DNA of 64,000 nt, taken from positions 96,001-160,000 of the forward strand of contig CAWANH010000029.1 of NCBI GenBank assembly GCA_963783375.1, read 5' to 3'. Within the stretch, counting starts at the first letter, position 1. Each line of letters opens with the position of its first letter. The position numbers and the translations under genes are program-made. The notes below the pieces were generated by a model, which had not been told where the DNA came from, did not search any database, and was given only the letters and a program-made list of their open reading frames with translations. This document shows positions 32,801 through 57,237 of the stretch, piece by piece. This DNA is from Candidatus Eiseniibacteriota bacterium (GTDB lineage: Bacteria; Eisenbacteria; RBG-16-71-46; JABDJR01).

Positions 32801-33029
32801 CGCCTCCACCCGGCTCACGTGGTCGGGGTCACGAGGAGCGGTGCGGATCGAGATCTTCGACGTGGCGGGGCGCCGGGCGGCATCGTTCCGGTTCCCGGCG
32901 GAAGCCGGGGGCTTCACCTGGACCGGCGACGACGACACGGGCCGGCTGCTTCCTCCCGGACTCTACTTCGTGCGGGCGGCCGACCGTTCCGGGTACGCGG
33001 TGACCCGGGTGCTGAAGCTTCCCCGCTGA
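29870..33029 (+). CDS. secreted S8 (subtilisin-like) serine peptidase with FG-GAP-like repeats and C-terminal FlgD-Ig/T9SS-type domain; two apparent frameshifts
   Basis: Signal peptide from ATG 29870; catalytic VAIIDSGV, HGTLVAG, SGTSFASPQVA; GQLDADTEPEL and ADLDGDWESDL repeats; GFPNPF..FDVAGRR..GLYFVRA. One added G at 30043-30049 and one near 31327-31329 join three ORFs into about 1053 aa. Confidence 0.85.
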
Positions 33030-40742: not shown

Positions 40743-43700
40743 ATGAACAGACGTCTTGCACGGGTTGCAGGGATCGCGGTCGCGACGCTCGCGCTGGCGG
40801 CTCTCACCCCCCTCCGCTCCCGGGCCGCGGTGACGGGGCCGGTGACCACCCTGGTCGAAGAGGCTCCCGGCGCGATTCGCTTCGAGGTGACCTTCGACCC
40901 TCCCCGGTGGGAAGAGACGACCCTGAACGGGGTCGACTATCGCTTCCCGAGCTGGCCGACCCTGCCCGGAACCGGCGATTCCGGAGATCCCGCTCTGCCG
41001 CTCACCGTGGTCCGGGTGGCCGTCCCCCCCGGCGCGGTCTCGGTGAGCGCCGCCACCCGGGAGCGGGGGCGGGCGATGGGGGTCCGGTTCCCTCCGGTGA
41101 CGAGCTACCAGCCGATCGATCCCCGGACGCGGCTTCGCGATCCCATGGTGTTGCACACCGAATCGGTGGAAGGGCCGCTCTTCACCGCCGACCGGGCTCT
41201 TCCCCCGGCCGAGATCCTCTCCGACGGGATCGAGCGCGGGGTTCGGATCCTGAACGTGGGCGTGCGGCCGGTGAGTTTCGACCCGGCCACCGGGTCCGCG
41301 GTGTGGGCGAGCGCGGTGACGGTGACCGTGAGCCTCCCTCCGGGCGCGGCGGCGCTGCCCGCGCGACCGGCGGTGGACCGGGTGGGGCAGGCGTCGTTCG
41401 AACGGGACCTGGTGAACCCCCGGGACGCTGCCCGCTGGTCGGGGGCGGCGGCCGACGAGGCGCCCGCGCTTCCCACCGCCACCGGCGTCCCTGCCACGTG
41501 GTTCGACGACGCCGACGGGTGGGCCAAGATCCGGATCGAATCCAACGGGGTTTACCGGTTGGATCGGAACGTGCTCGAGAACATGGGGGTGCCGGTCGGC
41601 ACCGTCGACCCGCGCACCTTCCGGCTCTTCGCCGGCCCCCTGGTGCCGCACCTGGCCTGGACCGATCTGGGTTGGGTCGGCAATCGCCCGGTCTGGCAGC
41701 ACGTCTACCAGCGCCCGGAGTTCGCCCAGGGATTCGACGGCGGGTTCGGTGAGATCCCCATGCTGGTTCGGGGGAACCTGGACGACGGCACGATGGACGC
41801 CTCCGACGCCCTCGTGTTCTACGCGCTCGGCCCGGACAATTACCGCGAGCGCTTCGGCCTCGCCCCCGACTCGACCGGCGAATACGTCATGAACCCCTAT
41901 ACCTCCCAGACCGTCTACTGGCTGGCCTGGGGAGGGGACTTCGCCGGTTCGCCCCGGCGCATGGCGGTCGAGGACGCGACCCCGGCCCCGGGGGCGCCGG
42001 TGGTGACCGACGGCCGGACGCGCATCCACTTCGAGAACATCAAGAACCGCGACAGCATCTACGACCCCTCGATGTACGACGGCGGCTATCCGTGGCCGCA
42101 GTGGTTCTGGGCCTCGATCTCCACCTCCAATCCCGCGGGCCAGGGATTCCTCCTGAACCTGCCCCAGGCCCTTTCCGGCTCCACCTTCGACGTCAGGATC
42201 CGCCTGTGGGGTTCGCAGGTTCCCCTCGCCGGGGGGGGCACCCTGGAAGAGGCGCGCCACCACGTCCACGTCAGGGTGAACAGCGTGGATCTGGGAACCC
42301 CGGCCTGGGGGGGCAGCTTCTTCACCTCGTTCACCCATCTTGACGTCACCGGCGAGGGCATCCCCACCGGCACTCCCGACACCCTCAAGCTGGTGGTGCC
42401 GCAGGTAGGGACCAACCCCGACCGCTACGATCAGGTCTACCTCACCTGGGTCGACGCAACCTATACGCGCCGGTTCGACGCCGGGGGGAACCCGGCGGAG
42501 TTCTCGGTCGGTGCCGGGGAATCGGGGCGGATGGTGCGGGTGTCCCGCCCGCCCTCCGGCGCCCCGCTGGTGCTCGACGTCACCGATCCGCGAAATCCGC
42601 GCCGGCTCACCGGGGTCCGGATCTCGGGATCGGGGACGGGAGCGATCGGGGAGTTCGCGGTCGGTTCGGACGCGGCCCGGACGGTGGCGGTGGCCTCGGA
42701 CGACGATCTCCTGACCCCCGCCGCCGGCTCCTATCGGGACGATCCGCCGGCGGGGGAGAACGGAAGCCCGACCTGGCTCCGGGACGCGACCTCCGCCGTG
42801 GACTACGTCCTGGTGGTGGGGGACGGATTCGAGGACGCGGCGGAGGTTCTCGCCCAGTGGAGGCGGAACAACCTTCTCGGCATCACCGAAAGCCGTCCCG
42901 CCAGGGTCCAGGTGGTCCGGGTGAGCGACATCATGGACGAGTTCACCTGGGGGATGTGGGACCCCATCGCCATCCGCTACTTCCTGGAGTACATGTACCG
43001 GTACTACGGACCCGGTGAGGACCGGCTCTCCTACTGCGTCTTCCTGGGGGACCACACCTACGATCCGCGGGACTTCCACCAGAACGGGATCCCCGACATC
43101 GTGCCTTCCTGGGAAGACAACCGGAGCGGCATCTCCGACATCCGGTACGGAAACATCCAGTACGCCACCGACGATCCCCTGGCCCGGTTCGACGGCTACG
43201 ACAGCGGACTCTACGACAACTACACCGATCTGATCCTGGGGCGGATCCCCGCCCGGACCGCGGCCGAGCTCCGGGGCGTCATCGAACAGAAGATCAAGCG
43301 GGCGGAGGAAGCCCCGTCCTACGGACCCTGGCGGACCAAGGCGATCCTGATCGCCGACGACAACTGCCAGGGACGCGACTCCGACTCGGCGGGGTCGACC
43401 CACATGCCGATCTCCGAGGAGGTGGACGCGGTCATCCCTTTCGTTTTCGATCGATCCAAGGTATACCTGTACGAATACGGGGAAACCTGCACCTATGACT
43501 CCAAGCCGGCGGCCAAGCGGGCGCTCCTGGACGCCTGGGACGACGGAGCCTGGCTGGTGAACTACGTCGGCCACGGCGGAAACGTGGTCATGGCCGATGA
43601 GCACGTGTTCGACGTAGCCGACGTGCCCGTTCTCACCAACGACGGGCGCCTTCCGGTGCTCGGGGCCTTCTCCTGCAGCGTGGGCAAGTTCAACAAAGCG

Positions 43701-44996
43701 ACGCAGGAAGGGATAGGCGAGGCGTTGGTTCTCCAGCCCCGGACCGGAACCATCGTCTCCGCCGCCGCCACCCACCTCACCAGCCCCGGGAACAACAAGC
43801 TCCTGAACAAGGATTTCATGCGCCGGCTCTTCCCCGGGGGGAACCCGGTGCCGCCGGTCCCCATCGGGGCCGCGCTCATGGAGGCCAAGCGCCTCCAGGC
43901 CAACGAGAACGACCGGTACATCTGTCTGGGGGATCCGGCCAGCCGGTTGAACGTGCCGGGGTCCGAGCTTGCGGTGACCGGCCCCGATACCCTGAAGGCC
44001 GGGGTCACCCCCGAGTTCTCGGTCCGCCGGGAAGACGGCGCGGGGACCGGCGGGACGCTGGACGTCCTGGCCCAGGGCCCGATGATCCTTCGCTCCAAGA
44101 ACTCCCAGGGGCAGCCGATCCCCGGCTTCGCCGCCGGATCCGGGTACCGGCTTCCCGGGGCGAGATTGTTCAGCGGGCGGTCGGCGATCGCCGGGGACAG
44201 CGCATCGGTGGCCTTCACCGTGCCGCGCTCGATCCGCGACGGCCAGGACGCGCGGGTGCGGATCTACGGTTCGGGAACCGGTTGGGACGGGGCGGGGATC
44301 GTCGGTCCGCTGCCCACCGATCCCCGCTCGACCGGGGCGGTGGACGACACCACCGGCCCGACCCTGAGCTTCAGCTCGCCCTCCACCGAGGTGTCGGCCG
44401 GCGACGAGATGGAGCTCCGGCTCGAGGACCCGTCGGGGATCAACCTCACCCGGGCGTTTCCGGTGTTCTCCATCCTGCTCAAGGTCTTCGATCCCGACGG
44501 GCGGGAACTCCTGCGTCTGGACCTGACCGACCGGTTCCAGTACGACGAGGGGAGCCACACCCGGGGCCGGGTGGTCTTCAACGTTCCCGATCTCGTCCCC
44601 GGGACCTACGACTTCGTGGTGACCGCGGCGGACAACAACGGGTTCACCTCCCGATTGACCGCCACCTTCCAGCTGGGCGCCGCCGCGCGGGGGGCGGCGT
44701 TCTCGGGCGTGCTGGCCTATCCGAACCCGTTCGACCCCGAGCGGGAATCCACCCGGGTCATGTTCACCCTGAACCGGGGGGCCAAGGTCACCGCGCGGGT
44801 CTACTCGGTGGCCGGGCGCCTGGTCTGGACGGACGAGAAGACGGTCTCCGCGGGGCCCAACGCCTTCCTGTGGAACGGGAGGGACCGGGGCGGGGACCGG
44901 GTGGCCAACGGGGTCTACCTGGTCCAGCTCGACGCCCGTCCGAGCGCGGGGGGAGGCCGCGCCAAGCATCTGGAGCGGGTCGTCGTCCTCCGGTGA
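40743..44996 (+). CDS. porU: C25 (gingipain-family) cysteine peptidase, PorU-like type IX secretion sortase, with C-terminal FlgD-Ig/T9SS domain (1417 aa)
   Basis: Signal peptide; C25 propeptide-like region; WAKIRIESNGVYRL, NPYT..TVYWL, IMDEF, LGD..YD, GRIPA; catalytic NYVGHG and FSCSVG; LGDPA; DTTGP..LEDPSGIN; YPNPF..GVYLV; lies directly upstream of porV. Confidence 0.85.
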   Translation: MNRRLARVAGIAVATLALAALTPLRSRAAVTGPVTTLVEEAPGAIRFEVTFDPPRWEETTLNGVDYRFPSWPTLPGTGDSGDPALPLTVVRVAVPPGAVSVSAATRERGRAMGVRFPPVTSYQPIDPRTRLRDPMVLHTESVEGPLFTADRALPPAEILSDGIERGVRILNVGVRPVSFDPATGSAVWASAVTVTVSLPPGAAALPARPAVDRVGQASFERDLVNPRDAARWSGAAADEAPALPTATGVPATWFDDADGWAKIRIESNGVYRLDRNVLENMGVPVGTVDPRTFRLFAGPLVPHLAWTDLGWVGNRPVWQHVYQRPEFAQGFDGGFGEIPMLVRGNLDDGTMDASDALVFYALGPDNYRERFGLAPDSTGEYVMNPYTSQTVYWLAWGGDFAGSPRRMAVEDATPAPGAPVVTDGRTRIHFENIKNRDSIYDPSMYDGGYPWPQWFWASISTSNPAGQGFLLNLPQALSGSTFDVRIRLWGSQVPLAGGGTLEEARHHVHVRVNSVDLGTPAWGGSFFTSFTHLDVTGEGIPTGTPDTLKLVVPQVGTNPDRYDQVYLTWVDATYTRRFDAGGNPAEFSVGAGESGRMVRVSRPPSGAPLVLDVTDPRNPRRLTGVRISGSGTGAIGEFAVGSDAARTVAVASDDDLLTPAAGSYRDDPPAGENGSPTWLRDATSAVDYVLVVGDGFEDAAEVLAQWRRNNLLGITESRPARVQVVRVSDIMDEFTWGMWDPIAIRYFLEYMYRYYGPGEDRLSYCVFLGDHTYDPRDFHQNGIPDIVPSWEDNRSGISDIRYGNIQYATDDPLARFDGYDSGLYDNYTDLILGRIPARTAAELRGVIEQKIKRAEEAPSYGPWRTKAILIADDNCQGRDSDSAGSTHMPISEEVDAVIPFVFDRSKVYLYEYGETCTYDSKPAAKRALLDAWDDGAWLVNYVGHGGNVVMADEHVFDVADVPVLTNDGRLPVLGAFSCSVGKFNKATQEGIGEALVLQPRTGTIVSAAATHLTSPGNNKLLNKDFMRRLFPGGNPVPPVPIGAALMEAKRLQANENDRYICLGDPASRLNVPGSELAVTGPDTLKAGVTPEFSVRREDGAGTGGTLDVLAQGPMILRSKNSQGQPIPGFAAGSGYRLPGARLFSGRSAIAGDSASVAFTVPRSIRDGQDARVRIYGSGTGWDGAGIVGPLPTDPRSTGAVDDTTGPTLSFSSPSTEVSAGDEMELRLEDPSGINLTRAFPVFSILLKVFDPDGRELLRLDLTDRFQYDEGSHTRGRVVFNVPDLVPGTYDFVVTAADNNGFTSRLTATFQLGAAARGAAFSGVLAYPNPFDPERESTRVMFTLNRGAKVTARVYSVAGRLVWTDEKTVSAGPNAFLWNGRDRGGDRVANGVYLVQLDARPSAGGGRAKHLERVVVLR

Positions 44997-45175
44997 TGCC
45001 GACAAATGGTTGTCGGGCAAGGAAATGGCAGGTTCGCTCTGGACCCGGTCGGCGGACCTCTGGTAGGCTCTCCGGCCGCCGCCCTACGGCAACCTTTTGG
45101 GAACCCGGCGTCCCCGCCAGGGTTCAACCAGCCAGTCCGGGGCACCGTTGTGCCCCGCCCAGGAGGACCGCGCCC

Positions 45176-46237
45176 ATGAGACTCTGGTACCGTCTAGCCC
45201 GCCCCCTCGCCGTAGCCGTCGTGCTCGTCACCGCCCTGGCCCCGGCCACCGCCTTCGCCGGGAGCACCGCGGGAGCGGCCTCGCTCCAGATCCCCCCCGA
45301 CGCCCGCGCCGAGGGGATGGGTCGGTTCTTCAACGCCGTCGCCGACGACGCCTTCGCCCCCTGGTGGAACCCGGCCGGCCTCGCCTTCCTGAAGGGCTGG
45401 AACGCCGGCCTCATGCACGCCAAGCTCGTGCCCGGTCTGGCCGACGACGTCTACTACGAGTACCTCGGGGTCACCAACAGCGTCCAGGGATGGGGCGGGG
45501 TGGCCGGCACCTTCACCTACCTGAACTACGGGACCAGCCAGGCCACCAATCCCGGGTCCTCGGAAGCCATCGGCACCTTTTCCTCCTACGAGTTCTCCCC
45601 CTCGATCGCGCTCGGAACCACCATCCTTCCCAACGTCGGCGTGGGGGCGAATCTGAAGCTGATCCACGTGAGCCTCGCCCCCGAGCAGTACGCCGGCCAG
45701 GGCGCGGGCAGCGGAACCAGCTTCGCCGTGGACCTGGGCGGCCTGTACCGGATGCAGCACCAGTCCGACAACATCTTCGGGATGGGCGCGGGAACCATGA
45801 GCCTCGGCCTCGGGGCCACCGTGGCCAACCTCGGTCCCGACATCTCCCTCACCCAGGGAAAGAAGTCCGACCCCATGCCCCGGAATCTCAAGGTCGGCGT
45901 GGCCCTGGGCGCGAAGATCCCCGAGTCCTACTCCTTCCTGGCCGGGTTCTCGGTCGAGAAGAACCTGGTGTTCAGCGACATTCCGGACAGCATCCGCGCC
46001 AAGCTCAACTTCGCCGACAAGCACGACGTGATCATGAGCGGAGGGTTCGAAGTCGGTCTCATGGACCTGGTGTTCGGCCGCGTCGGCTACATCTACGACG
46101 ACCCGGGCGAGATCAAGAACTGGACCTTCGGGGCCGGTTTCCACCTGAAGGAGTTCGGGCTCGACTTCGCGTCGATCCCCCAGGCCAAGGACCTGGACCG
46201 GGTGAGCAAGATCTCGCTGGTCGCGGCGTTTGATTGA
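45176..46237 (+). CDS. porV: PorV/PorQ-family outer-membrane beta-barrel (T9SS shuttle)
   Basis: RBS AGGAGG; signal peptide; LQIPPDARAEGMG, WWNPAGLA, LVPGLADDVYYEY, YLNYG, FAVDLG, NLGP..DPMPRNLKVG, GRVGY..TFGAG. Confidence 0.85.
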   Translation: MRLWYRLARPLAVAVVLVTALAPATAFAGSTAGAASLQIPPDARAEGMGRFFNAVADDAFAPWWNPAGLAFLKGWNAGLMHAKLVPGLADDVYYEYLGVTNSVQGWGGVAGTFTYLNYGTSQATNPGSSEAIGTFSSYEFSPSIALGTTILPNVGVGANLKLIHVSLAPEQYAGQGAGSGTSFAVDLGGLYRMQHQSDNIFGMGAGTMSLGLGATVANLGPDISLTQGKKSDPMPRNLKVGVALGAKIPESYSFLAGFSVEKNLVFSDIPDSIRAKLNFADKHDVIMSGGFEVGLMDLVFGRVGYIYDDPGEIKNWTFGAGFHLKEFGLDFASIPQAKDLDRVSKISLVAAFD

Positions 46238-49200
46238 GAGGGTTCGCCCCGGGGCCCGGTTCGCGGTAATCGTCCTGGGGCTCCTCGTCCCGGTCCTGGC
46301 CGGGGCCGACACGCCGCGACACCTGGTGGTGGTGGGCCGGTCGCACGACGCTCACTCCCGGGCGGAGCGGCTGGTCACCCTCGAGGCCCCGGCAGGCCGC
46401 AAGCCGGCGCCGCGGGGATCCGGGACCGCCCTCGAACCGCGGGCTTTCCCCCACGACCTCTTCCAGCCCGGGGCCGCGCGCCCCTTCCTCCGGCCGGTTC
46501 GCGAGCTCCTGCGGGACGGCCTGGCCGCCGCCGCCGCCGATCCCGGCCCCGACACCGTCCGGGTGGCCCTCATGCGGGTGGACTTCCGGAAGGATTCCCG
46601 CGGGGCGACCACCACCACGACCGACGGGCGCTTCGATCTCCGGACCGGGACCGGCGCGCTGGTCGATCCTCCCCCCCACAACAAGGCCTACTTCGAAGCC
46701 CACGCCCGCGCCCTGGCCGCCTACTACCTGGCCCAGTCCTACGGGAGCATGGTGATCGAGATCACGGTGTTCCCGGCGGAGGAGGACAGCGCCTACCACC
46801 TTTCCGACACCGGGGACTACGGCCCGTGGGAGGTGGCCCAGAACGCCGAGGTGGTGGCCAACGCCAGCCGCCTGGTCATCGACGCGGTGACCGCCGCGGC
46901 GACGAGCGGCGACTTCCGGTTCGACGACTTCGACGCCTACGTGGTGGCCCACGCCGGGGCCGATTACCAGAGCGACGTGAACCGGGACACCCCCGACGAC
47001 ATTCCCACCTTCACCCTGAGTCTGGCCGATTCCATCACGACCGGGACCGGGAAGGTGGGGCGGGTGCTGGTGCTTCCCGAGACCTCGGTTCAGGATGACT
47101 ATCTCGGGGCGTTGAACGGGACCTTCGCCCATGAGTTCGGCCACGTGCTGGGGCTCCCGGATCTCTACAACATCTGCAACGGGCTCCCCCAGGTCGGGTG
47201 GTGGAGCCTCATGGACAGCGGGGAGAACATCCGCTCCATCATCGCCGACGTGGCCGACGGGGACACCCTGGAGTACGAGGCGGCCGGGGTCTTTCCCACC
47301 AGCTTCGACCCCTGGTGCAAGCTCCAGCTCTTCCCCAAGGCGGTGGCCCCCCTCATGATCGGGGAAACCTGGCAGCAGGCGATGGAGGCGGTGGAGCTGA
47401 ACCCCCACATTCCCTACGTCTCCCTCGATCCCACCGAGACCTTCCTGATCGAGAACCGGGCGCTGGACCTGGACGGGAACGGGTTCCCCTACGTGCGCGC
47501 GGACTCCACCACCGGGGTTTTCCTGGGCCCGGTGGACGATCCCGAAGGCTCGGATCCGGTCGGCCACCTGGAGTACGACGCGGTGCTCCCGGGCGAGGGC
47601 ATCCTCATCTGGCACGTGGACGACAAGATTTTGGGCCCGGCCCTGGCCGGCCAGGACCTGGGGGACGGCTGCCCGGGGGGCATCAACCTCTACACCGGCT
47701 TCCGGGGGCTCTCGGTGGTCGAGGCCGACGGGATCTCCGACCTGGGGCGTCCGGCGCTGCTTCGCTACCTGGGGAGTCCCGAGGATCCGTTCTTCCTGGA
47801 CAACAACCCGCTCTTCGCGCCCGGCACCGTGCCCGGGACCGCGGCCAACGACGGCGCCTGGACCGGGATCCGGGTGGAGATCACCTCCAACCCGGGCCGG
47901 GTGATGGGGATCAAGATCGAGCGCCCCCTGGCCCGGGACGGCTGGCCGCGGCTCCTGCCCTATGACGACGAGGTGAAGAGCAACGTGGGGAAGCTCGCGG
48001 TGCTCGACCTCGACTCCGCGACCGGCGGCTCGAGCCCCGAGGTTCTCTTCACCCTCGACCAGTCGCGCACCGGTCCTCCCCCCGCCACCTTCCGCGGCCT
48101 GGGAGCGGTCCGCGCCGACGCCACCCCCTACGTGGACACTCTCTTCGCCCGGGCCAACGCCCGCATCCTGGGGATGGCCGTCTCGTCGTCTTTCGTGTTC
48201 GGCGCGGGGCGGCCCGGGGAACGGGTGATCGCGCTGACCGTGAACGGCGGCGCGGTGGAGCTCTACCAGCCCGGCGGACGGCCGCTCATCCGGGTGGCGG
48301 GGCCGAACGTGACCCGGCCGGCCCAGACCCCGCCGGTGATCTTCCTTCGTGGGAGCGACTCCAGCCTGATCCTGTACGGCACGCAGGCCGGGCTGGTCGC
48401 CCTGCGTCCCCAGGACGGAACGGCGGCCTACGAGACCCAATCCTGGCCGGTCACCGGCACCGCGGGGGCGATTCCCGTGGGCGCGCCGGTCGTCACCCCC
48501 TACCGCACCTACTCACTTCCGCTGGGTCCGCCGGGGCCGTCGACTCCGCCTCCCCAGGTCGCCGCCCAGGCCTACGCCGGCGGCCGGGTCGAGTTCTTCG
48601 ATCTCAATCAACCCGGAACCACCCCCTCGTCCCACCGGTTCTCGACCGAGGTGGCCCACATCCTGGGCGCCAACTGGCCCTCCGTCGACTCCGGTCTTCT
48701 GGACCCGAACCTGTCCGGCTTCGGCGATGCCTTCGCGGTGTTCACCGCGGACACCGTGGCGGTGATGAACGGGAACATCGTCACCGCCTGGAAGCTCCCC
48801 GCGCCGGTCAGCGTCCCGCCGGTCCTGGGCGACCTGGACGGGGACGGCGAAGTCGAGATCGTGGCGGTGACCGACGCCGGCGATCTCCTGGCCTGGAACC
48901 CCGACGGAAGCCCGGCGGTCGGGTGGCCGCGCCCGGTCGAGGCCCCGGTGCGGGACCTGAAGCTCGCCGACCTCGACGGGGACGGCGACCTGGACGTGCT
49001 GGTGCTGGATCACCATGGACGCTTCGTGGGACTCGACGGCCGGGGGAAGCTCCTTCCGGACTACCCCCGCGCCTTCGGCACCTATCCCGTACGCTTCGCC
49101 TGGTTGGCCGCGCTCGATCCCGCCGATCCGACCCGGGGGCTGACCTGGGTGGCCACCCTGGACAACGGGGCGCTGGTGGCCCAGCGTTTCCCCGAAGCCC

Positions 49201-49586
49201 GGGTGCTCACCGGCGATTGGCGGATGCCCGGCGGCCGCCCCGAGGGGGGAAACGTGCAGGAGCATTCCGTGCGGAGCATGGACGCCGCGGCCCCGGACCT
49301 GGGCAAGGACCGGTTGCTGGTCTATCCCAATCCCGCCCGGGGGGACGGGGTGGAGATCCGTTTTCTCCTCGACCCGGGAGAGACCGCCGACCTCACGATT
49401 CTGGATCTCACCGGCCGCGAGCTGGACGGGCCGCGGCTGGACAATCGCGGCGGATTCCACCCCGGGGAGAACGCGGTGCGCTGGACCCTGAACGGGGTGG
49501 CGCCGGGGCTCTACCTCTGTCGCCTGGAGCGGGAGGGGACCGGGGGAAAGCACGTGGATCTGGCCAAGATCGTGGTCGTGCGTTGA
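46230..49586 (+). CDS. M6 (immune inhibitor A-like) metalloprotease with FG-GAP repeats and C-terminal T9SS-type domain
   Basis: VAHAGAD, HEFGHVLGLPDLY, Met-turn WSLMDSG, DPWCK, FLIENR, GILIWHVD; GDLDGDG repeats; YPNP..GLYLCR..KIVVVR. Confidence 0.88.
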   Translation: MIERVRPGARFAVIVLGLLVPVLAGADTPRHLVVVGRSHDAHSRAERLVTLEAPAGRKPAPRGSGTALEPRAFPHDLFQPGAARPFLRPVRELLRDGLAAAAADPGPDTVRVALMRVDFRKDSRGATTTTTDGRFDLRTGTGALVDPPPHNKAYFEAHARALAAYYLAQSYGSMVIEITVFPAEEDSAYHLSDTGDYGPWEVAQNAEVVANASRLVIDAVTAAATSGDFRFDDFDAYVVAHAGADYQSDVNRDTPDDIPTFTLSLADSITTGTGKVGRVLVLPETSVQDDYLGALNGTFAHEFGHVLGLPDLYNICNGLPQVGWWSLMDSGENIRSIIADVADGDTLEYEAAGVFPTSFDPWCKLQLFPKAVAPLMIGETWQQAMEAVELNPHIPYVSLDPTETFLIENRALDLDGNGFPYVRADSTTGVFLGPVDDPEGSDPVGHLEYDAVLPGEGILIWHVDDKILGPALAGQDLGDGCPGGINLYTGFRGLSVVEADGISDLGRPALLRYLGSPEDPFFLDNNPLFAPGTVPGTAANDGAWTGIRVEITSNPGRVMGIKIERPLARDGWPRLLPYDDEVKSNVGKLAVLDLDSATGGSSPEVLFTLDQSRTGPPPATFRGLGAVRADATPYVDTLFARANARILGMAVSSSFVFGAGRPGERVIALTVNGGAVELYQPGGRPLIRVAGPNVTRPAQTPPVIFLRGSDSSLILYGTQAGLVALRPQDGTAAYETQSWPVTGTAGAIPVGAPVVTPYRTYSLPLGPPGPSTPPPQVAAQAYAGGRVEFFDLNQPGTTPSSHRFSTEVAHILGANWPSVDSGLLDPNLSGFGDAFAVFTADTVAVMNGNIVTAWKLPAPVSVPPVLGDLDGDGEVEIVAVTDAGDLLAWNPDGSPAVGWPRPVEAPVRDLKLADLDGDGDLDVLVLDHHGRFVGLDGRGKLLPDYPRAFGTYPVRFAWLAALDPADPTRGLTWVATLDNGALVAQRFPEARVLTGDWRMPGGRPEGGNVQEHSVRSMDAAAPDLGKDRLLVYPNPARGDGVEIRFLLDPGETADLTILDLTGRELDGPRLDNRGGFHPGENAVRWTLNGVAPGLYLCRLEREGTGGKHVDLAKIVVVR

Positions 49587-49678
49587 CCGGGATGGGCGAG
49601 GCGGTCCGGGGCCGCGAGCCGAATCCGCACTCCGGCCCGGTCGTGAAACCCCGGGCGATTCGAGGGGTATGGAACACC

Positions 49679-50506
49679 ATGAGACACTCCGGGATGAGAT
49701 CCTCGTGGATGGGGGCGGCGCTTCTGACCGGAGCGGCCCTGGTTCTCTCCGGGGCGCCCGCCGGGGCGGCGGACGACGGCGGCCGGCTCTATGCGGTCAT
49801 GGCCCGGGGGGACGCGCGGCCGGGGCTCGGGGCCGGGACGGCGCCGGAGCCCCGTTGGGGACCCTCGGAACTCGGCGGGGTGGGGGGCGCGCGGAGGGGC
49901 CGGTCGGTCTCCCCGGCGGTGGCCGGTTTCCTCTCCGCCCTGGTGCCGGGGGCGGGACAGCTCATCCAGGGCCAGTCCCGGGGGTGGGCCTACCTGGGGG
50001 TCGAGGGGGCGGCGTGGTTCTCGGTGCTCTCGCTTCACGACGCGGGGAATCAGGCGGAGACGGACTACCGGGCCTTCGCCGGGGACCCCAACGACACGCA
50101 CAGCCGGTGGGCCTTCCATCGCTACGAGACGGTGACCGACTGCGGGGAGGGGTTGGGCCCGGTGGACTTCGAGTCCGAGAGCGAGGCCATCCACCGGGTC
50201 TACGTGAACGCGCGGGACGACTACTTCGATGAGATCGGACGGCTCAACGTCTACGCCTGCGGATGGACCACCCAGGCCGACCGCGCGCGGTACCTGGGGA
50301 TGCGCTCCCACGCCGACGCGCTCTTCTCTTCCGCCCGATGGGTGGTGGGAGCGATGTTCCTGAACCACGTGGTGAGCGCGGTGGACGCGGCCAAGTCGGC
50401 TTCCAACCGGCGGAAGGCGGAGGCCGGGTTCTCCTGGGATTGGCGCGTGGCGCCCACCCCGCGCGGAGACCTGGCTTTCAACATGGAGCTCAGCCGCAGA
50501 TTCTGA
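49679..50506 (+). CDS. exported hypothetical protein, DUF5683-like (paralog 1)
   Basis: Signal peptide; FLSALVPGAGQL..YLGVE; YFDEIG..Y..GW; NHVVSAVDA; ends ...FNMELSRRF. Start uncertain (49679 or 49694). Confidence 0.7.
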   Translation: MRHSGMRSSWMGAALLTGAALVLSGAPAGAADDGGRLYAVMARGDARPGLGAGTAPEPRWGPSELGGVGGARRGRSVSPAVAGFLSALVPGAGQLIQGQSRGWAYLGVEGAAWFSVLSLHDAGNQAETDYRAFAGDPNDTHSRWAFHRYETVTDCGEGLGPVDFESESEAIHRVYVNARDDYFDEIGRLNVYACGWTTQADRARYLGMRSHADALFSSARWVVGAMFLNHVVSAVDAAKSASNRRKAEAGFSWDWRVAPTPRGDLAFNMELSRRF

Positions 50507-50603
50507 CCGGGATTCCCGAACTTTCCGGGCCTGTCGGACGCGCCGGGACTCATGGGCGTGCCGGCGCTTCCGGAATGACCTGCAACACGGAGAACAGATT
50601 GCC

Positions 50604-51413
50604 ATGCGCTGGATAGGTATCACCTTCGGCTCCGCGATCCTCGTCGCGCTCCTCGCCACCGCGGCCTCGGCGGGCGGGCGGGACCGGCCGGGACCGGCCC
50701 CGAACCTGTTCCCCGATCGCCTCTACGATTCGGGGCGCATCCTGGAGCAGGCCGCGGAGACGCCCGGGGTCTCGCTACCCAAGGCCTCGGGGAACAAGAA
50801 CGCCAAGCTGGCCATGCTCTACTCCCTGGTGCTCCCCGGCCTGGGGGAGCAGTATCTGGGGCATACCGCCCGGGCCAAGGGCTTCTTCGCGGCCGAGGGG
50901 GGGATCTGGACCGCGTTCGCGGTATTCCGGACCCAGGGTTCGCACCGGAAGGAGCTCTACCACGAGTACGCCGAGGTGAACGCGGGGGTGAAGCAACGGA
51001 GCGACGACGACTTCTACCGGATCGTGGGGAACTACGTGTCGTCCGACGGTCCCTACAGCGCCAACGAGTTCGTGAGACGCCAGGCCCGGGCCCTGTGGCC
51101 GGGGGTGGACGAGGCGAGCCGCCAGGCCCGGGAGCAATACCTCCAGGAAAACGGCTATTTCGGGAGCAATGCCTGGAACTGGCCGGACGTCCCCACCCTG
51201 ATCGCCTACCAGAAGATGCGCAAGTCCAGCCTGGACGCGTACCACCGGGCCGACCTGAGCGTGGGTCTCCTCCTGGCCAACCGGCTCCTGTCGGTGCTGG
51301 ACGTGGGACTTCTGGCCAAACGGAGCGGCGGTGATTATTCCGGCTTGTCCTGGGAAATCGACGCGGGACCCAAGGGCCCCGGGGCCCAGCTCACCCTCGC
51401 GCGCACCTTCTAG
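50604..51413 (+). CDS. exported hypothetical protein, DUF5683-like (paralog 2)
   Basis: Signal peptide; AMLYSLVLPGLGEQYLG..FFAAE; NRLLSVLD; ends ...AQLTLARTF. Confidence 0.75.
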   Translation: MRWIGITFGSAILVALLATAASAGGRDRPGPAPNLFPDRLYDSGRILEQAAETPGVSLPKASGNKNAKLAMLYSLVLPGLGEQYLGHTARAKGFFAAEGGIWTAFAVFRTQGSHRKELYHEYAEVNAGVKQRSDDDFYRIVGNYVSSDGPYSANEFVRRQARALWPGVDEASRQAREQYLQENGYFGSNAWNWPDVPTLIAYQKMRKSSLDAYHRADLSVGLLLANRLLSVLDVGLLAKRSGGDYSGLSWEIDAGPKGPGAQLTLARTF

Positions 51414-51423
51414 CCGCCGGCCC

Positions 51424-52359
51424 ATGAACCGGACGCGCGCGCAGCGGGGGATGGGCGCGCTTCTCCTTCTCACCGCGGTCGCGGCGGGCTGCGCCTCCCG
51501 GGCCGGAACGCCGCCCGCCTCCGGCCTCTCCGCCGGGACCGCGATCTGGTGGCCGGCCGGGCCCCCCGCGGATCGATGGTTTCCGGTGGCCGCGCTCTCC
51601 CTTCCCAACGGAAAGCTGGCGGTGGCAGAGACCAACCAGAACCGGATCTTCCTCCTGGACGACCCCGGCGCGGTTCCGTTCCGGCTCCCCGCTCCCGGTC
51701 GCTCCCCGCTGGAGTGGACCGCCCTCGCCCCGGCTCCCGGCCTCTCCTTCTACGCCCTGGACGGACCGGGGCGGTTGATCCAGCAGTACGACCTCCAGGG
51801 AAACTACCTGGGGCTGGCCCTCGACCTGAACACGGTGGCCCTGGACCACGATCTCGGAACGGTGGAGCCGGCGGGGCTGGCGGTGGACCGCACCGGCCAC
51901 GCGGTGGTGACCGATCGGGTCGGGGACCGGCTCCTGGTGTTCGGCCCGGGGTGGATCTTCCTGGGAGTGTGGGGGCAGAGCGGCTCCGAGGCCGGCTCGT
52001 GGCGCCGGCCGGGGCGGGTGGCGGTGGGAGACCGGCCGCCCTTCCTGGTGGCCGACGAGGGGAACCGGCGGGCGGTGCTTCTGGACGGTCTCGGGGAGGT
52101 GCTGGGCGTCTGGGAGAGCCCGGACGCGCCCCGGGGGGTGGCGGTGCTCGGCCCCGGCCTCTACGCGGTGAGCGAGGGGAGTCGCGTGCATCTCTTCGGT
52201 CGGGGCTTCATCCCGGATCGGACCCTGGAGCTTCCCGTCGCGGACGGTTGCGCGGGCCGGGGATACGCCACCACCGCCCTCACCGGCAACGACGAGAACC
52301 TGTTCCTGGGAGACGGCTGCTCGGGGCGCGTGGCGGAGCTCCGGCGACCCGGGAGTTGA
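51424..52359 (+). CDS. NHL-repeat beta-propeller lipoprotein
   Basis: Lipobox AAGC; repeats LAVAETNQNRI, PAGLAVDRTGHAVVTD..GDRL, PGRVAV..FLVADEGNRR. Confidence 0.8.
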   Translation: MNRTRAQRGMGALLLLTAVAAGCASRAGTPPASGLSAGTAIWWPAGPPADRWFPVAALSLPNGKLAVAETNQNRIFLLDDPGAVPFRLPAPGRSPLEWTALAPAPGLSFYALDGPGRLIQQYDLQGNYLGLALDLNTVALDHDLGTVEPAGLAVDRTGHAVVTDRVGDRLLVFGPGWIFLGVWGQSGSEAGSWRRPGRVAVGDRPPFLVADEGNRRAVLLDGLGEVLGVWESPDAPRGVAVLGPGLYAVSEGSRVHLFGRGFIPDRTLELPVADGCAGRGYATTALTGNDENLFLGDGCSGRVAELRRPGS

Positions 52360-55300
52360 CGGTGTCGGCCCGCGCCTGGATGGGGGGGGCGATGATCGCG
52401 GCCGGCGTGCTCGGCGCGGGCGCGGCCCGGGCCCAGTCCGGCCTCCCTCCGCTGGTCACCGACACCCTCTTCGTGGATCCCGGGGAGCGGGTCGTCTGCC
52501 TGAACCGCCCGTTCATCCTGGCCTCGACCTTCTCGCTCCGAGACCGGGGGCGCACCCTGGACCCGGGCGCCGACTACCTCCTCGACGCCGATTCCGGCTG
52601 CTTCACCCTCATGGTCGCCGATACCCTGGTGGGCGCGCAGGTCCTGGTGGCCTCGTTCCGGGCGCTCCCCATGACCCTCCAGGGAATCTACCGGCTCCGC
52701 GAGGATCCCCATCTCCGCGAGACCGGGACCTCCGCCCCCACCGACACCCTCGCCCGCCCCCCGACCCCGTTCAATCCCGAAGAGGAGACCCGGGGTCTCG
52801 ACATCTCCGGGAGCAAGACCTTCGGCGTCACCATCGGGAACCGGCAGGATCTGAAGCTTCGCCAGAGCCTCGACCTTCGCCTCTCCGGACAGGTCACCCA
52901 CGACGTATCGCTGTTGGCCATCCTCTCCGACCAGGACCTGCCGTTCCAGCCCCAGGGGAACACCGCGGAGCTGAGTGAGCTGGACCGGGTGCTGGTGCAG
53001 ATCCGGTCTAACCGCGCCGCGGCCAGCCTGGGGGACGTGAGCCTGGGGGTCACCGGGTATTCGTTCCTGGAGCTGAGCCGGGAGCTGGAGGGCCTGACCG
53101 CGGAGGCGACCCTGGGAGAGACCCGGACCCGGGCCGCCGCCGCCTCGGCCAAGGGCGAGTTCACCAGCCGGCAGTTCTTCGGGGTGGACGGGAAGCAGGG
53201 GCCCTACCTGCTCACCGACCGGGCCGACTCCACCGACATCGTGGTGGTGGCGGGTTCGGAGAAGATCTGGCTGGACGGAACGCTCCTCTCCCGCGGGGAG
53301 GAGGCGGACTACGTCGTCGACTATTCGTTGGGAGAGATCTCCTTCACCAGCCGTCACGTCATCACCGCCAACTCCGAGATCACGGTGGACTACCAGGTGG
53401 CCAGCTCCCGCTACCGGCGCCGGGTGACCTTCGCCGAGACCCGGACGGCGATGGGGCGGGCGGGAACCCTTCGCGCGGCGTACTTCGGCGAGGGGGACGA
53501 CGCCAACAACCCGTTCGGGGGGGAGCTCACCGCCGGGGAGCGGGCGGAGCTGGCCGCCCTGGGCGACTCCGCCCGGATCTCGGGGGGTACGCGATACGTG
53601 GGCCCGGGGAACGGCGGTGACTACCAGCTGGTGGTGGACCCCGAGACCGGCCACGACATCTACGTCTACGTGGAGGGCGCGGGGGACTACCAGGTCACCT
53701 TCGTGGACGTGGGAGAGGGGAAGGGGGAGTACGAGGTGGATCCCGAATCCCCGACCGGGAAGACGGTGTACCGGTACGTGGGTCCCGGCCAGGGGAGGTT
53801 CGTCCCCCGGCGCGATCTGCCCCCCCCGGAGCGGAAACGGCTGACCGATCTCCGGTGGGAGCTCCGTGGGACCGGCGGCCTGGTCACCGTGGAGGGCGCG
53901 GTTTCCCGGGCCGACGCCAACACCCTGAGCCCCCTGGGGGACGGGAACAACCAGGGGGGCGCGCTGATCGCCGAAGGACGGCTCCGGTCGGTGGAGACGG
54001 GTGCGCTCTCCTTCTCCCCCGGCTTCAAGGTGCGCCGGGTGGGGGGGGACTTCCGAAGCCCCGGCCGCATCCACCCCGCGTTCTACAGCCGGGAGTGGAA
54101 CCTCACCGGCTCGGAGGAATTCCGGGACGAGTCGCTCCAGGAGGGATCGCTCACCACCCGATGGGGGGAGCGTCTGCGCTGGGAGGCGACCGCCGCCCGC
54201 CTGGCCGCCGCCGACACCTTCAGCGCGGTGCGACAGAGCCAGACCCTCACCTGGAGCGACGCGTGGGTGGCCGGGAACGCGGGGTGGCGGACCGCCGACA
54301 ACCGGGTGAACGGGACGTCGGGGAAGCTGGTGAACACCGGCGGGGAGATCCTGCTCCGGCGCTGGACCGTCCAGCCCCGGGTGAGCGGTCTGAACGAGAC
54401 CCGACGGCGCGCCCTCGGCGGGGGCGAGCGGCACCGCCAGTGGGACGCGGCGCTGCTCTTTCCCTCGGCGTTCTGGCCGGTGGACGCCGAGGTCGGCGCG
54501 GGACGGCGCCTCGACGATTCCCTCGCCGTGGTCGACGGTTCCTGGCGTTCCGCCCTGGACACCCGAAGCATCCACGGAAGCGTCACCGGCCGGACGGGGA
54601 GCGTCGGCTTCCTCCTTCGCTACGAGGCGCGCCGGGTGACCCGGGACGGGGTGGGAACCGAGCGCCGGGACCTCGGGCGGTTGGACCTCCGCCAGCAGGC
54701 GGTGGAAGGGGCGTGGTCCGCCGTTCTCACCGCGGACATCGGGACCGAGGGGGTGCGCCGCCGGACCAAGGAGATCGTGCCCGCGGCCTCGGACAGCGCC
54801 GGCTACTTCGACCGCTTCGGAAACTATGTGGGACCGGGGGGCGGCTACGACGTGGTCTACGGTCCGCGCGGGGACGAGGTCCTCTCCGGCACCGTGAACC
54901 TCACCTCGCGCTTCCGCTGGTCGCCGCCGGGAGGAAAGAGCCGCTTACCGGCCTGGCTCACCCGCCTGGCCTGGGAAGGCTACCTGAACCTCATCGAGTC
55001 CTCGACGTTGCCGCTCACCACCCCGCGGTATTTCCTGAACCCCGGGTCCTACCTCTCCAAGGCCACCACCCTGAACGGACGGCTGGCCGAACGGCAGACC
55101 CTGGACCTCTTTCCCCTCCATCGCGGCGCCGGGCTCCGCCTGGCCCAGGCGACCGACCGGACCCTCACCCAGAGTCCGGAGAGCACGAGCGGCGACACCC
55201 GCCTGGTCGAGACCTCGGTGGAGGACACCTACACCGCGACCCTGCGCCTGAACCCCGGTCCGGGCTGGGATACCGAGGCCGAAGCCTCCTACGGCGATCG

Positions 55301-55739
55301 CCGCGAAGGGGTGGACCTGGGAGTGGGGGGCTCTTTCGAGCAGGCGACCCGGCTTCGCACCGCCACCGCGCGCGGGGGGCGGAAGCTCGCGGTGGGCGGG
55401 GGGAACGGCCGCGCGTCGGGGGAGGTTTCCTACAGCGTGGAGAAGGGCTCCGGGCGGGAAGGGCGGGCCTGGGTCTGGCGCCCGAGGCTCCAGTGGTCGC
55501 TCCCCCGGGTGGGGCGCCTCGACGCCCGCTACACCCGAACCGACTTCACCCTCCGCGAGGGCTTCACCGGCTTCCGCGGTCCCGGCGCGCCCGCCCTCAC
55601 CGAGGGGTGGCGGCTGGACGTGATCGGCGAGGCCCGGGTGAAGGAAGGGGTCACCCTGACCCTGGCCGTGGCTCTCGATCATCCCACCGGGTTGAGCGAG
55701 GTGCGTGAGGGGCGGATGGAAGTGAGAGGATCCTTCTGA
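52356..55739 (+). CDS. large outer-membrane beta-barrel protein with SprA-like motifs (about 1127 aa)
   Basis: Signal peptide; GSKTFGVTIGN..LRQSLDLRLSGQV..LSDQDLP..GNT..ELDRV; GSEKIWLDG..L.RG..DYVVDYSLGEISF (SprA-like); long amphipathic beta C-terminal half; terminal Phe (EVRGSF). Start TTG 52356 or GTG 52362. Confidence 0.7.
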   Translation: MTVSARAWMGGAMIAAGVLGAGAARAQSGLPPLVTDTLFVDPGERVVCLNRPFILASTFSLRDRGRTLDPGADYLLDADSGCFTLMVADTLVGAQVLVASFRALPMTLQGIYRLREDPHLRETGTSAPTDTLARPPTPFNPEEETRGLDISGSKTFGVTIGNRQDLKLRQSLDLRLSGQVTHDVSLLAILSDQDLPFQPQGNTAELSELDRVLVQIRSNRAAASLGDVSLGVTGYSFLELSRELEGLTAEATLGETRTRAAAASAKGEFTSRQFFGVDGKQGPYLLTDRADSTDIVVVAGSEKIWLDGTLLSRGEEADYVVDYSLGEISFTSRHVITANSEITVDYQVASSRYRRRVTFAETRTAMGRAGTLRAAYFGEGDDANNPFGGELTAGERAELAALGDSARISGGTRYVGPGNGGDYQLVVDPETGHDIYVYVEGAGDYQVTFVDVGEGKGEYEVDPESPTGKTVYRYVGPGQGRFVPRRDLPPPERKRLTDLRWELRGTGGLVTVEGAVSRADANTLSPLGDGNNQGGALIAEGRLRSVETGALSFSPGFKVRRVGGDFRSPGRIHPAFYSREWNLTGSEEFRDESLQEGSLTTRWGERLRWEATAARLAAADTFSAVRQSQTLTWSDAWVAGNAGWRTADNRVNGTSGKLVNTGGEILLRRWTVQPRVSGLNETRRRALGGGERHRQWDAALLFPSAFWPVDAEVGAGRRLDDSLAVVDGSWRSALDTRSIHGSVTGRTGSVGFLLRYEARRVTRDGVGTERRDLGRLDLRQQAVEGAWSAVLTADIGTEGVRRRTKEIVPAASDSAGYFDRFGNYVGPGGGYDVVYGPRGDEVLSGTVNLTSRFRWSPPGGKSRLPAWLTRLAWEGYLNLIESSTLPLTTPRYFLNPGSYLSKATTLNGRLAERQTLDLFPLHRGAGLRLAQATDRTLTQSPESTSGDTRLVETSVEDTYTATLRLNPGPGWDTEAEASYGDRREGVDLGVGGSFEQATRLRTATARGGRKLAVGGGNGRASGEVSYSVEKGSGREGRAWVWRPRLQWSLPRVGRLDARYTRTDFTLREGFTGFRGPGAPALTEGWRLDVIGEARVKEGVTLTLAVALDHPTGLSEVREGRMEVRGSF

Positions 55740-57237
55740 TGCGGGGGGCGCGCCGCGCGGCCACGGCGCTCTTCCCGGTCGCCGCCGTGGTGGGGGCGCT
55801 CCTCCTCGCCGTCCCCGCCCGGGCCGACGAAGTCCTGCGCTGGGGTGGGGTCGAGGTGCGCTGCTCCTCCCCCGCGGACTCGATCGCGTTTCTGGAGGCC
55901 CTGGATCTCGAGGGCCGGCCGGTGGCCGGGGCGTCCCTGGACGCCGCGATCCGCCGGGGGCTCGACGCCCTGGCCGAACGGGGGCATCCCTTCGCCGAGG
56001 CGCGGCCCGGAGGTTTCGCGCTCGAAGATGGCCGCCTCACCGGGCGTATCCGGCTCGATGCGGGCGTTGCCGCCCGGCTCGACGGCCTGGTGCTTCCCGG
56101 GGCCGAGGTCACCTCGGTCTCCACCGCCCTCCGCCTGGCCGGAATCACCCGCGGCGAGCTCTATACCGGAGACGCCGATCGGCGGGTGCGCGACCGCCTG
56201 GCCCGGTCCGGCCTCTTCACCTCGGTGGGGGAGCCGGTGCTCGAGCCCGGCCTCGCCCCCGACGCGGTGCTTCTGAAGCTCCCGGTGACCGAGCCCCCCT
56301 ACACCCGGTTCTCGGGGATCCTGGGGGTGAGCGGGCGGAACTCGAAGCTCACCGGGCTGGTGGATCTCGATCTGGCCAACCTCGGCGGGACCGCCCGCCA
56401 CGCCGCGGGCCGGTGGGAGAGCCGCGGAAACGGGCTCACCCGCTACAACCTCTCCTACCGCGAGCCCTGGCTCCCCCTCATCCCGGTGGGGGTGGAGGGA
56501 GCCCTCGCTCATGACGTGAATGAAGGCGTGTATTCGCATACCACATGGGAGGTTAGTGGTGTCGTACAATGGGCGGGAATCTGGACCTTCCGCCTGGGGC
56601 GGGGGGAAGCCGGGCGGTGGACGCCGGCACCGCCGCCGGCGACGTTTCCGAGGGATTCACCCTGGCCGGAATCGAGCTCGACCGGCGGAACTCGGTCCTC
56701 GTCCCTACCGCGGGCTACCGGCTGGGGCTCACCAGCCGCCGGGGGATCAAACGCTACACCCCCGCCGGCGACTCGCTCCGGGTGCGGATCGACCGGACCC
56801 GTTGGGACGTCGAAGGGGACGGGTACCGGCGGGTCGGCCGTCGCTGGCTGGCCGCGGTCACCGCGAACTTCCGGTACCTGGAGACCCCCGAGGACTCCCT
56901 TCCCCGCTACGACCTGTTCGCGGTGGGGGGGGCGGCTTCCCTTCGGGGCTACCGCGAGGAGCAGTTTCTCACCCCGGGAGCCTTCGTCCTCCAGGTGGAG
57001 TGGCGGTGGCTTCAGGATGACCGGGGCTCCGCCCTGTACCTCTTCGACGACCTCGGTTTCATCTCGCCGCGGGAGGGCCGGAGCCTCCGCGACACCTTCC
57101 ACACCTTCCTCATGGGGACCGGGGTGGGGGTCCGTCAGGCCTCGAAGCTCGGCGTTCTCGGGGTGGAGTACGGGGTGGCCAAGGGGGAGAATCCCCTCGA
57201 CGGCCGCATTCACCTCCGGGTGGACGCGGTGTTCTGA
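55739..57237 (+). CDS. Omp85 (BamA/TamA-like) outer-membrane protein with POTRA-like domains; one apparent frameshift
   Basis: TGATG coupling to the upstream gene; POTRA-like LAERGHPFA and RLARSGLF; NLGGTARH, SYREPW; loop-6 motif VGGAASLRGYRE; terminal ...IHLRVDAVF. One added G at 56601-56606 gives 499 aa. Confidence 0.8.

Follow-up and report, generated by a model that had tools for sequence, protein, structure and literature searches.

The 64,000-nt window analyzed here (positions 96,001 to 160,000 of contig CAWANH010000029.1, Candidatus Eiseniibacteriota; coordinates without a prefix are positions in this window) belongs to a 97%-complete genome totalling 4.73 Mb. It contains a row of eight genes resembling parts of a type IX secretion system (T9SS), including one for a predicted giant outer-membrane barrel related to the translocon SprA (Table 1). 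All eight open reading frames (ORFs) lie on the plus strand and have a codon bias typical of real genes, the GC content of third codon positions being 0.84-0.91 over the full ORFs checked. Overlaps of 8, 4 and 1 nt are observed for porV/M6, NHL/barrel and barrel/omp85, respectively, and the remaining gaps are 10-179 nt. ORF calls, family scans and these overlaps confirm the original prediction, made from the sequence alone, of eight co-directional envelope genes, several of them overlapping. The genome is, as was also supposed, not one of Bacteroidetes, its same-genus and same-family relatives being Ca. Eisenbacteria. The row is preceded by accA (in the order dnaE-accA) and followed by a HEAT-repeat gene and then ligA; a scan of the locus for promoters and terminators gave no signal above shuffled sequences.

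Table 1. Genes of the row and their positions in the 64,000-nt window.
Product	Position	Strand	Features
PorU-like C25 sortase, 1417 aa	40743..44996	+	Signal peptide, catalytic His/Cys, C-terminal sorting domain
PorV/PorQ-family carrier barrel, 353 aa	45176..46237	+	NF033709, PF19572
M6-family metalloprotease, 1118 aa	46230..49586	+	FG-GAP-like region, sorting domain; PF05547, PF13517
DUF5683-like protein A, exported, helical	49679..50506	+	C-terminal beta-hairpin-like tail, final Phe
DUF5683-like protein B, paralogue of A	50604..51413	+	Predicted long helical hairpin and C-terminal beta-hairpin
NHL beta-propeller protein	51424..52359	+	PF01436; lipoprotein-like signal in the window protein
SprA paralogue (second giant barrel), 1127 aa	52356..55739	+	Predicted 38-stranded outer-membrane barrel
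Extra Omp85-family protein, about 500 aa	55739..57237	+	PF01103; split in the window

The PorU-like protein matches the C25 peptidase family PF01364 (E 5e-67), scores just below the cut-off of NF033707 (401.5 against 420 bits) and passes that of the sorting domain TIGR04183 (23.5 against 23 bits). Its catalytic dyad, predicted to be intact, is present (His949/Cys983), and the NY.GH motif (His-Cys) is kept in 35 of 39 orthologue ORFs. The PorV assignment stands at the level of the family: the protein passes NF033709 (189 bits, cut-off 90), matches PF19572 (E 6e-14) and remains below the cut-off of the PorV equivalog NF033710 (117 against 250 bits). A second large C25 protein is encoded at C29:1325027-1329214 (minus strand; 1395 aa, with a C-terminal tail), matching the local PorU profile with E 5e-139.

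The M6 protein, described earlier as a protease with a sorting domain, matches PF05547 above the cut-off and carries a weak C-terminal sorting domain. In the alignment, the zinc motif HExxHxxxxxD is invariant in all 41 distinct orthologues from loci with the full cassette, and the zinc site is lost in all 15 orthologues from outside Eisenbacteria. The suggestion from a strict regular expression that most orthologues are inactive was rejected, as these 41 motifs proved intact. The window protein is orthologous to the NCBIfam family NF052323 (M6i; T9SS-dependent M6-like inactivated metalloprotease) and shares its position after porV, but that family is inactivated, as are the outside orthologues and unlike the full-cassette ones; one outside orthologue scores 847 bits against the cut-off of 600, and the window protein 177. 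Since the gene stays beside porV even where the active site is dead, the conservation pattern suggests that M6 probably belongs to the PorU-PorV complex as a resident partner with a structural role, rather than being ordinary cargo.

The likeness of the next two proteins to DUF5683 (PF18935), also proposed before, holds as a weak one. Neither A nor B individually has a Pfam match at E 0.01, and 22 of 40 family members match DUF5683 weakly, below or near the cut-off (best E 1e-5); the window protein scores 16 bits and outside members 23-26, compared with the gathering cut-off of 26.7. The final Phe is present in 17 of 20 sequences each. The AlphaFold2 model of protein B (pLDDT, the score of the predicted local distance difference test, 86.5) comprises a long helical hairpin and a C-terminal beta-hairpin ending in Phe. 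GldM occupied the top two rows of a Foldseek search with it, but at E 0.24-0.30 and TM-scores of about 0.2, and a hidden GldM was rejected; in hhalign, comparison of the DUF proteins with GldK/L/M/N gave only probabilities below 0.3%. A wide structural search with protein B returned generic helical hairpins only (Z at most 8.7), with no clear match.

The NHL protein of the window matches PF01436 and has a lipobox-like AAGC, in line with its designation as a lipoprotein; the Cys is missing in some orthologues. Its gene lies directly upstream of the barrel gene in several phyla. The last gene indeed encodes an Omp85-family protein (PF01103), with a frameshift that had been overlooked: one G is short in a G run near position 56600. 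The gene is a single intact ORF in relatives, including a 95%-identical one, and contigs from three of four sequencing runs have the extra G (the fourth run has no coverage of the site), so the split is likely an assembly error. POTRA domains are detected in distant orthologues. The intact 500-aa protein of a relative fails the BamA model TIGR03303 (37 against 297 bits); BamA is about 800 aa long.

The barrel protein matches the SprA model TIGR04189 weakly (E 9e-7, 26.4 bits, cut-off 200), and in the family scans no Pfam or NCBIfam family matches its family. The latter includes at least 2,448 representative sequences (E ≤ 1e-30), some from Flavobacterium-type genomes. In the protein atlas only unnamed clusters are found at 0.99, the nearest named ones being a porin-family cluster (0.88) and a SprA cluster (0.87). 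The terminal Phe is conserved in 20 of 20 sequences. The AlphaFold2 model (32 sequences; pLDDT 79.1, predicted TM-score 0.67) has 38 predicted membrane strands, with short turns alternating with long loops; strand number and barrel closure are predictions, the strands being counted from the secondary-structure listing of the model without coordinates. To our knowledge, 38 strands exceeds any solved single-chain barrel. In the model, strands 7 and 9 are each followed by a beta-rich loop domain, and two of the strands, 3 (8 residues) and 4 (7 residues), are short.

Foldseek ranks SprA structures 1-3 for this model (E 6e-10 to 7e-9). A second aligner (VIA) places barrel residues 144-1127 on SprA 133-2401 (693 residues, Z 14.3, root-mean-square deviation 9.2), with smaller barrels above SprA by Z. 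In hhalign, barrel residues 145-348 align with SprA 167-432 (probability 90.9%), and 295-381 with SprA 642-730 (97.2%); residues 151-350, i.e. the SprA-homologous part, are also the most conserved in the family. The protein thus shares with SprA (PDB 6H3I, 8GL6, 8GL8; TIGR04189) profile homology over strands 1-9 and a loop beta-sandwich, but has half the length (1127 compared with 2000-2500 aa), 38 predicted strands compared with 36 in SprA (PMC10994853), lacks most of the extracellular cap and is always accompanied by a true SprA. Judged by sequence and predicted fold, it is a paralogue of SprA, not an orthologue. The predicted fold and the homology of the SprA-like barrel that had been proposed stand, but its role as the translocon is largely refuted, a full-length SprA lying elsewhere.

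Three barrels with the same predicted strand number have been reported in Deinococcus radiodurans (PMC9388160). The TIGR04189 search that matches the barrel is silent in 14 control genomes, D. radiodurans among them. A complex prediction for the cut barrel (residues 144-800) with PorV gave a score of 0.00 and is counted as evidence neither way. The literature searched, consisting largely of papers outside subscription, contained no paper on this barrel, on the operon or on T9SS in Eisenbacteria.

Full-length sprA is found at C29:765039-771268 (minus strand), about 610 kb from the locus, over the TIGR04189 cut-off. It has one frameshift near 770585, where a relative has a single ORF, and full-length SprA is present in all 30 relatives. 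Its neighbours are genes that we take, by their sequences, to be lptF/G-like and rimP-nusA-infB-like; lptFG-like genes also stand next to sprA in the majority of Eisenbacteria loci and in several genomes from outside. The genome has 13 PorV-family matches, six of them, including the window PorV, over the cut-off. Among 103 matches to the sorting domain TIGR04183, 95 exceed the cut-off, giving about 95 scattered cargo genes, and a local profile yields 118 C-terminal tags. A hydrophobic N-terminus is seen in 79 of 114 tagged proteins, compared with 1465 of 3229 in the background. An 832-aa BamA-like gene is located at C29:590975 beside skp-like and lpx-like genes, and a TamA/TamB-like pair elsewhere. 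Searches of this genome for PorP, PorZ and Plug, in which the positive controls were recovered, found none of the three (for PorZ, 56 of 89 candidates were scored); the PorP profile match (E 3e-5) is a PorV-family gene.

Several PorV paralogues directly adjoin a cargo gene, as if the carriers were cargo-specific. At C29:824716-832603 (minus strand) and C28:1978582-1987292 (plus strand), a TonB-dependent-receptor-like gene, a tagged cargo gene and a PorV-family gene stand in tandem, and near C28:162255 (minus strand) a 5137-codon open frame ending in a sorting domain adjoins a PorV-family gene.

These data bear on the possibility that the locus is a compact self-sufficient T9SS with the 1127-aa barrel as the translocon, as proposed originally. 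The co-directional overlapping genes, their conserved order and the SprA-like fold agree with it. Yet full-length SprA is present elsewhere in this genome and in 30/30 relatives, the small barrel occurs without SprA in none of 44 outside genomes or 30 relatives, and the genes for cargo, BamA and five more PorV-family proteins over the cut-off lie scattered, which largely refutes this explanation and leaves it very improbable. Since full-length SprA, BamA, PorV paralogues and about 95 cargo genes lie elsewhere, the locus is neither the sole translocon nor self-contained. The idea that translocon, shuttle, sortase, assembly factor and cargo share one locus fails for the same reason, SprA being about 610 kb away and BamA and cargo scattered, and "streamlined" is the wrong word for a system with an extra giant barrel.

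Models of the T9SS are based on two Bacteroidia species, in which cargo is drawn from SprA by a motor that is proton-driven. In Eisenbacteria genomes at least 90% complete, neither GldM nor GldL exceeds its cut-off (0/101 each; one weak GldL match, E 9e-6, lies in a 1185-aa frame). GldN was found in 0/10 Eisenbacteria genomes. Among the positive controls, GldM is over the cut-off in 9 of 41 outside genomes, whose phylum we take to be Bacteroidota in the GTDB sense, and GldN occurs in the same nine (9/44). Local gldKLMN profiles were built from the operons of these nine, and each left-out member was recovered at E ≤ 1e-25. In an unfiltered six-frame search of the window's genome these profiles gave nothing except one partial GldK-profile match at C28:1173585, rejected as an FGE-fold protein with only the C-terminal third aligned and no signal peptide; it resembles EgtB. 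Motor genes were likewise not found in outside lineages whose SprA scores 1500-2600 bits.

Thus, the reported lack of porK/L/M/N in the window extends, in profile searches with controls, to the whole genome. Of the T9SS components proposed for a genome-wide search, full-length sprA was found and porKLMN was not. Nor was a canonical complete T9SS seen elsewhere: SprA is full-length, but GldKLMN, true PorP, PorZ and Plug were not found.

Alternatively, a motor and ring equivalent to GldKLMN could be present but too divergent to detect, the barrel being accessory. The motor is essential where studied (PMC10994853, PMC12635249), and Eisenbacteria SprA scores about 500 bits, compared with more than 2000 in Bacteroidia, so the divergence is large. 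On the other hand, the four proteins went unmatched in the unfiltered search, save the partial GldK-profile match, the motor is also missing from the results for lineages with SprA of 1500-2600 bits, and the DUF proteins have no profile likeness to GldK/L/M/N. We consider a divergent motor improbable.

Synteny was analyzed in 20 of 29 barrel-positive relatives, chosen for long contigs. The gene order is kept in all 20 class loci, as the original prediction would have it; porU is reached in 17, the other three being cut by contig ends. M6 is missing in four of the 20, NHL and omp85 are undetected in one each, and one locus has an insertion between porU and porV. A genome-wide scan gave 80 barrel loci, 42 of them having an upstream flank of 8.5 kb or more. 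The porV-M6-DUF-NHL row is carried by 27 of these 42, including Eisenbacteria and one TA06, and not by the other 15, of which eight keep NHL and seven omp85. Independence of the downstream half from porU/porV, named earlier as a finding that would speak against a single machine, is seen in 15 loci outside Eisenbacteria and TA06, but not in the 27 where the halves stand together. In Flavobacterium- and Ignavibacteria-type genomes the barrel stands alone, in five Balneolales-like loci it directly precedes exbB-exbD-exbD, and in the TA06 locus, too, it follows the porU cassette.

The upstream half has its own distribution. A porU-porV-M6-(peptidase-propeller barrel)-DUF cassette is found in 12 of 20 outside loci, which is not an unbiased rate, because about 10 of the 20 were chosen for a DUF match near porU; a thirteenth outside locus (KSB1) has porV-M6-(peptidase-propeller barrel)-DUF-DUF. 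The cassette adjoins lptF/G-like genes and sprA in two outside loci and is one gene from the barrel in one, of an Ignavibacteria-clade genome. Genomes of the Ignavibacteria, Balneolales and KSB1 types that have no motor also carry the porU-porV-M6-DUF5683-like part, and the two motor-bearing loci examined keep only porU-porV. As both halves recur outside Eisenbacteria, their distribution indicates that the locus joins two modules, both older than Eisenbacteria.

The peptidase-propeller protein (L157:6764-9868, minus strand, with 12 homologues) combines an HExxH peptidase with a TolB-like propeller in about 1030-1150 aa. It sits between M6 and DUF in the outside cassettes and not in the Eisenbacteria locus; two distant homologues are encoded in the window's genome (C28:560207 and C29:254714). 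Near the row, an exported HEAT-repeat protein (57256-58302, minus strand) lies between omp85 and ligA and has the same place only in two same-genus relatives, and another C-terminal sorting-domain protein with FG-GAP/M6-like similarity (31398-33029, plus strand) lies upstream of dnaE. A helicase gene at 60451-62645 (plus strand), presumably DinG-like by its sequence, is apparently split over two frames, probably by an assembly error, since a close relative has one 749-codon frame.

The barrel is present in 97 of 101 Eisenbacteria genomes. Outside this group (44 genomes of unstated completeness, the kin among them not being independent) it occurs in 35 of 37 SprA-positive genomes compared with none of seven SprA-negative ones, and in 28 of 28 that are SprA-positive and motor-less; no barrel without SprA was found in these 44 genomes or in the 30 relatives. 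The DUF profile matches 25 of the 28 motor-less SprA genomes (one weakly), 0/9 motor-bearing and 0/7 SprA-negative ones.

With such co-occurrence, it is rather unlikely that two unrelated modules happen to stand side by side in Eisenbacteria, one being a sorting cassette of the T9SS (porU-porV-M6-DUF) and the other an NHL-barrel-Omp85 module doing its own job, e.g. large-solute import or polymer export. The barrel is never seen without SprA (0/7, compared with 35/37 with SprA), is itself a SprA paralogue, and follows the porU cassette in TA06 and lies one gene away from it in the Ignavibacteria-clade genome. Such independence is nevertheless what the 15 of 42 long-flank loci with a barrel and no porV nearby would suggest, as would the solitary barrels of Flavobacterium- and Ignavibacteria-type genomes, those before exbB-exbD-exbD in five Balneolales-like loci, the SprA homology over about one third of the barrel chain, and the position of the locus within a housekeeping string (dnaE-accA upstream, ligA downstream).

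The gene content, order, homology and co-occurrence described above are accompanied by SprA elsewhere, about 95-118 tagged cargo genes and no detectable motor. The interpretation that we favour, with a confidence only slightly on the positive side, is that the gene row is an outer-membrane handling operon of a motor-less T9SS, and that the barrel, as a paralogue of SprA, is predicted to provide a second giant pore. If the system works as in Bacteroidia, cargo would cross the inner membrane by Sec and enter SprA, its tail would bind PorV, and PorU would cut the tail and then anchor or release the cargo. M6 and the DUF pair would be resident partners, and the DUF5683-like pair is the best candidate for an envelope part dispensable in motor-bearing lineages. 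The second barrel could possibly serve as a smaller carrier-gated pore for part of the cargo or carriers, an idea falling somewhat short of an even chance, because SprA's first strands and its loop domain are retained in the model, whose two short strands could leave a notch in the side. Folding or holding the barrel would be aided by the NHL propeller and the extra Omp85.

The energy step is the weakest one of this proposal. Since the F. johnsoniae motor is needed for cargo release, a motor-less system needs another energy source; that it comes from a general ExbB/ExbD/TonB set is doubtful, and cargo release might alternatively need no energy. There are four ExbB-like loci in the genome. One of them, an exbB-exbD-exbD-tonB-like operon at C29:698809-701312 (minus strand), is a candidate energiser; its ExbB best matches (E 6e-71) the ExbB encoded directly after the barrel in Balneolales-like genomes.

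Several observations weigh against the motor-less handling operon with a second pore. Secretion by these systems is a prediction from genes, and the searches of this genome gave no PorZ, Plug or PorP. Whole-model Foldseek TM-scores of the barrel to SprA are low (0.24), and hhalign finds homology only in its N-terminal third, with nothing significant beyond. Profiles made from Bacteroidia would miss a GldLM that has diverged very far, and F. johnsoniae requires its motor for the extraction of cargo from SprA (PMC10994853). Beyond Eisenbacteria and TA06 the barrel usually lies apart from porU/porV, and the outside cassettes come from the partly selected loci mentioned above. Two SprA-positive genomes, both motor-bearing, have no barrel, so T9SS in general does not depend on it. 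Finally, three motor-less genomes have no DUF match, and the anti-correlation of DUF with the motor is a single evolutionary contrast, because the nine motor-bearing genomes are one clade.

Compared with the T9SS of Flavobacterium johnsoniae and Porphyromonas gingivalis, the common features are full-length SprA, PorV-family carriers, a PorU-like His/Cys sortase, porU-porV adjacency and type A C-terminal sorting domains, here on about 100 proteins. Unlike there, GldK/L/M/N, PorP/SprF, PorZ and Plug were not found, and porU-porV is extended by M6, the DUF5683-like genes, NHL, the second barrel and Omp85. The system thus resembles T9SS but departs from the canonical (Bacteroidia) kind in motor and ring, neither of which was found. 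For Melioribacter and Ignavibacterium, an oral-motility gene survey reports, of all T9SS proteins, only SprA, PorV and Plug (PMC11705866); SprA and PorV are shared with the system described here, while Plug, reported there, was not found in this genome. The statement is a single sentence of the survey, and PorU, the cassette, the second barrel and Eisenbacteria lie outside its scope. Thus, SprA without the motor is already briefly in print, and the second barrel has no paper in the literature searched.

The order of events was addressed with a SprA tree of 40 proteins (1751 columns, LG+F+G4, fast search), rooted on ten Eisenbacteria as an assumed root; it covers 30 of the 37 outside SprA genomes, the split SprA of the window genome being left out. 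The nine motor-bearing genomes form one clade, with full support (Shimodaira-Hasegawa-like approximate likelihood ratio test, SH-aLRT, 100), nested below four successive motor-less branches: KSB1, an Ignavibacteria-containing clade, one further clade and a Balneolales-containing one. Counting Eisenbacteria, a single gain of the motor makes a simpler history than five losses, which suggests that the translocon predates the motor. With the root so assumed, the tree fits the ancestral T9SS-related machine suggested in the original prediction. SprA is described as specific to the Fibrobacteres-Chlorobi-Bacteroidetes (FCB) group and, among the FCB phyla tabulated, missing only in Chlorobiota (PMC12611786).

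A bolder proposal, which we put forward tentatively and would not expect to hold in all its parts at once, is that the ancestral FCB T9SS was a two-pore motor-free machine, consisting of SprA and its 38-stranded paralogue, PorV, PorU, an M6 protein and helical proteins of the DUF5683-like kind, with ExbBD/TonB or binding energy as its power source, and that GldKLMN was gained once, in Bacteroidia. If true, such a single late gain would reverse what a 2025 paper infers, namely that the gliding machinery was the setting in which T9SS first evolved (PMC12635249). A whole phylum and several further lineages have SprA, PorV and PorU, with the motor not found, and branch outside the motor-bearing clade; therefore, both the power for cargo release and the order of origin become testable. 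Moreover, the locus points to concrete unstudied parts, above all the SprA-paralogue family in Flavobacterium-type genomes.

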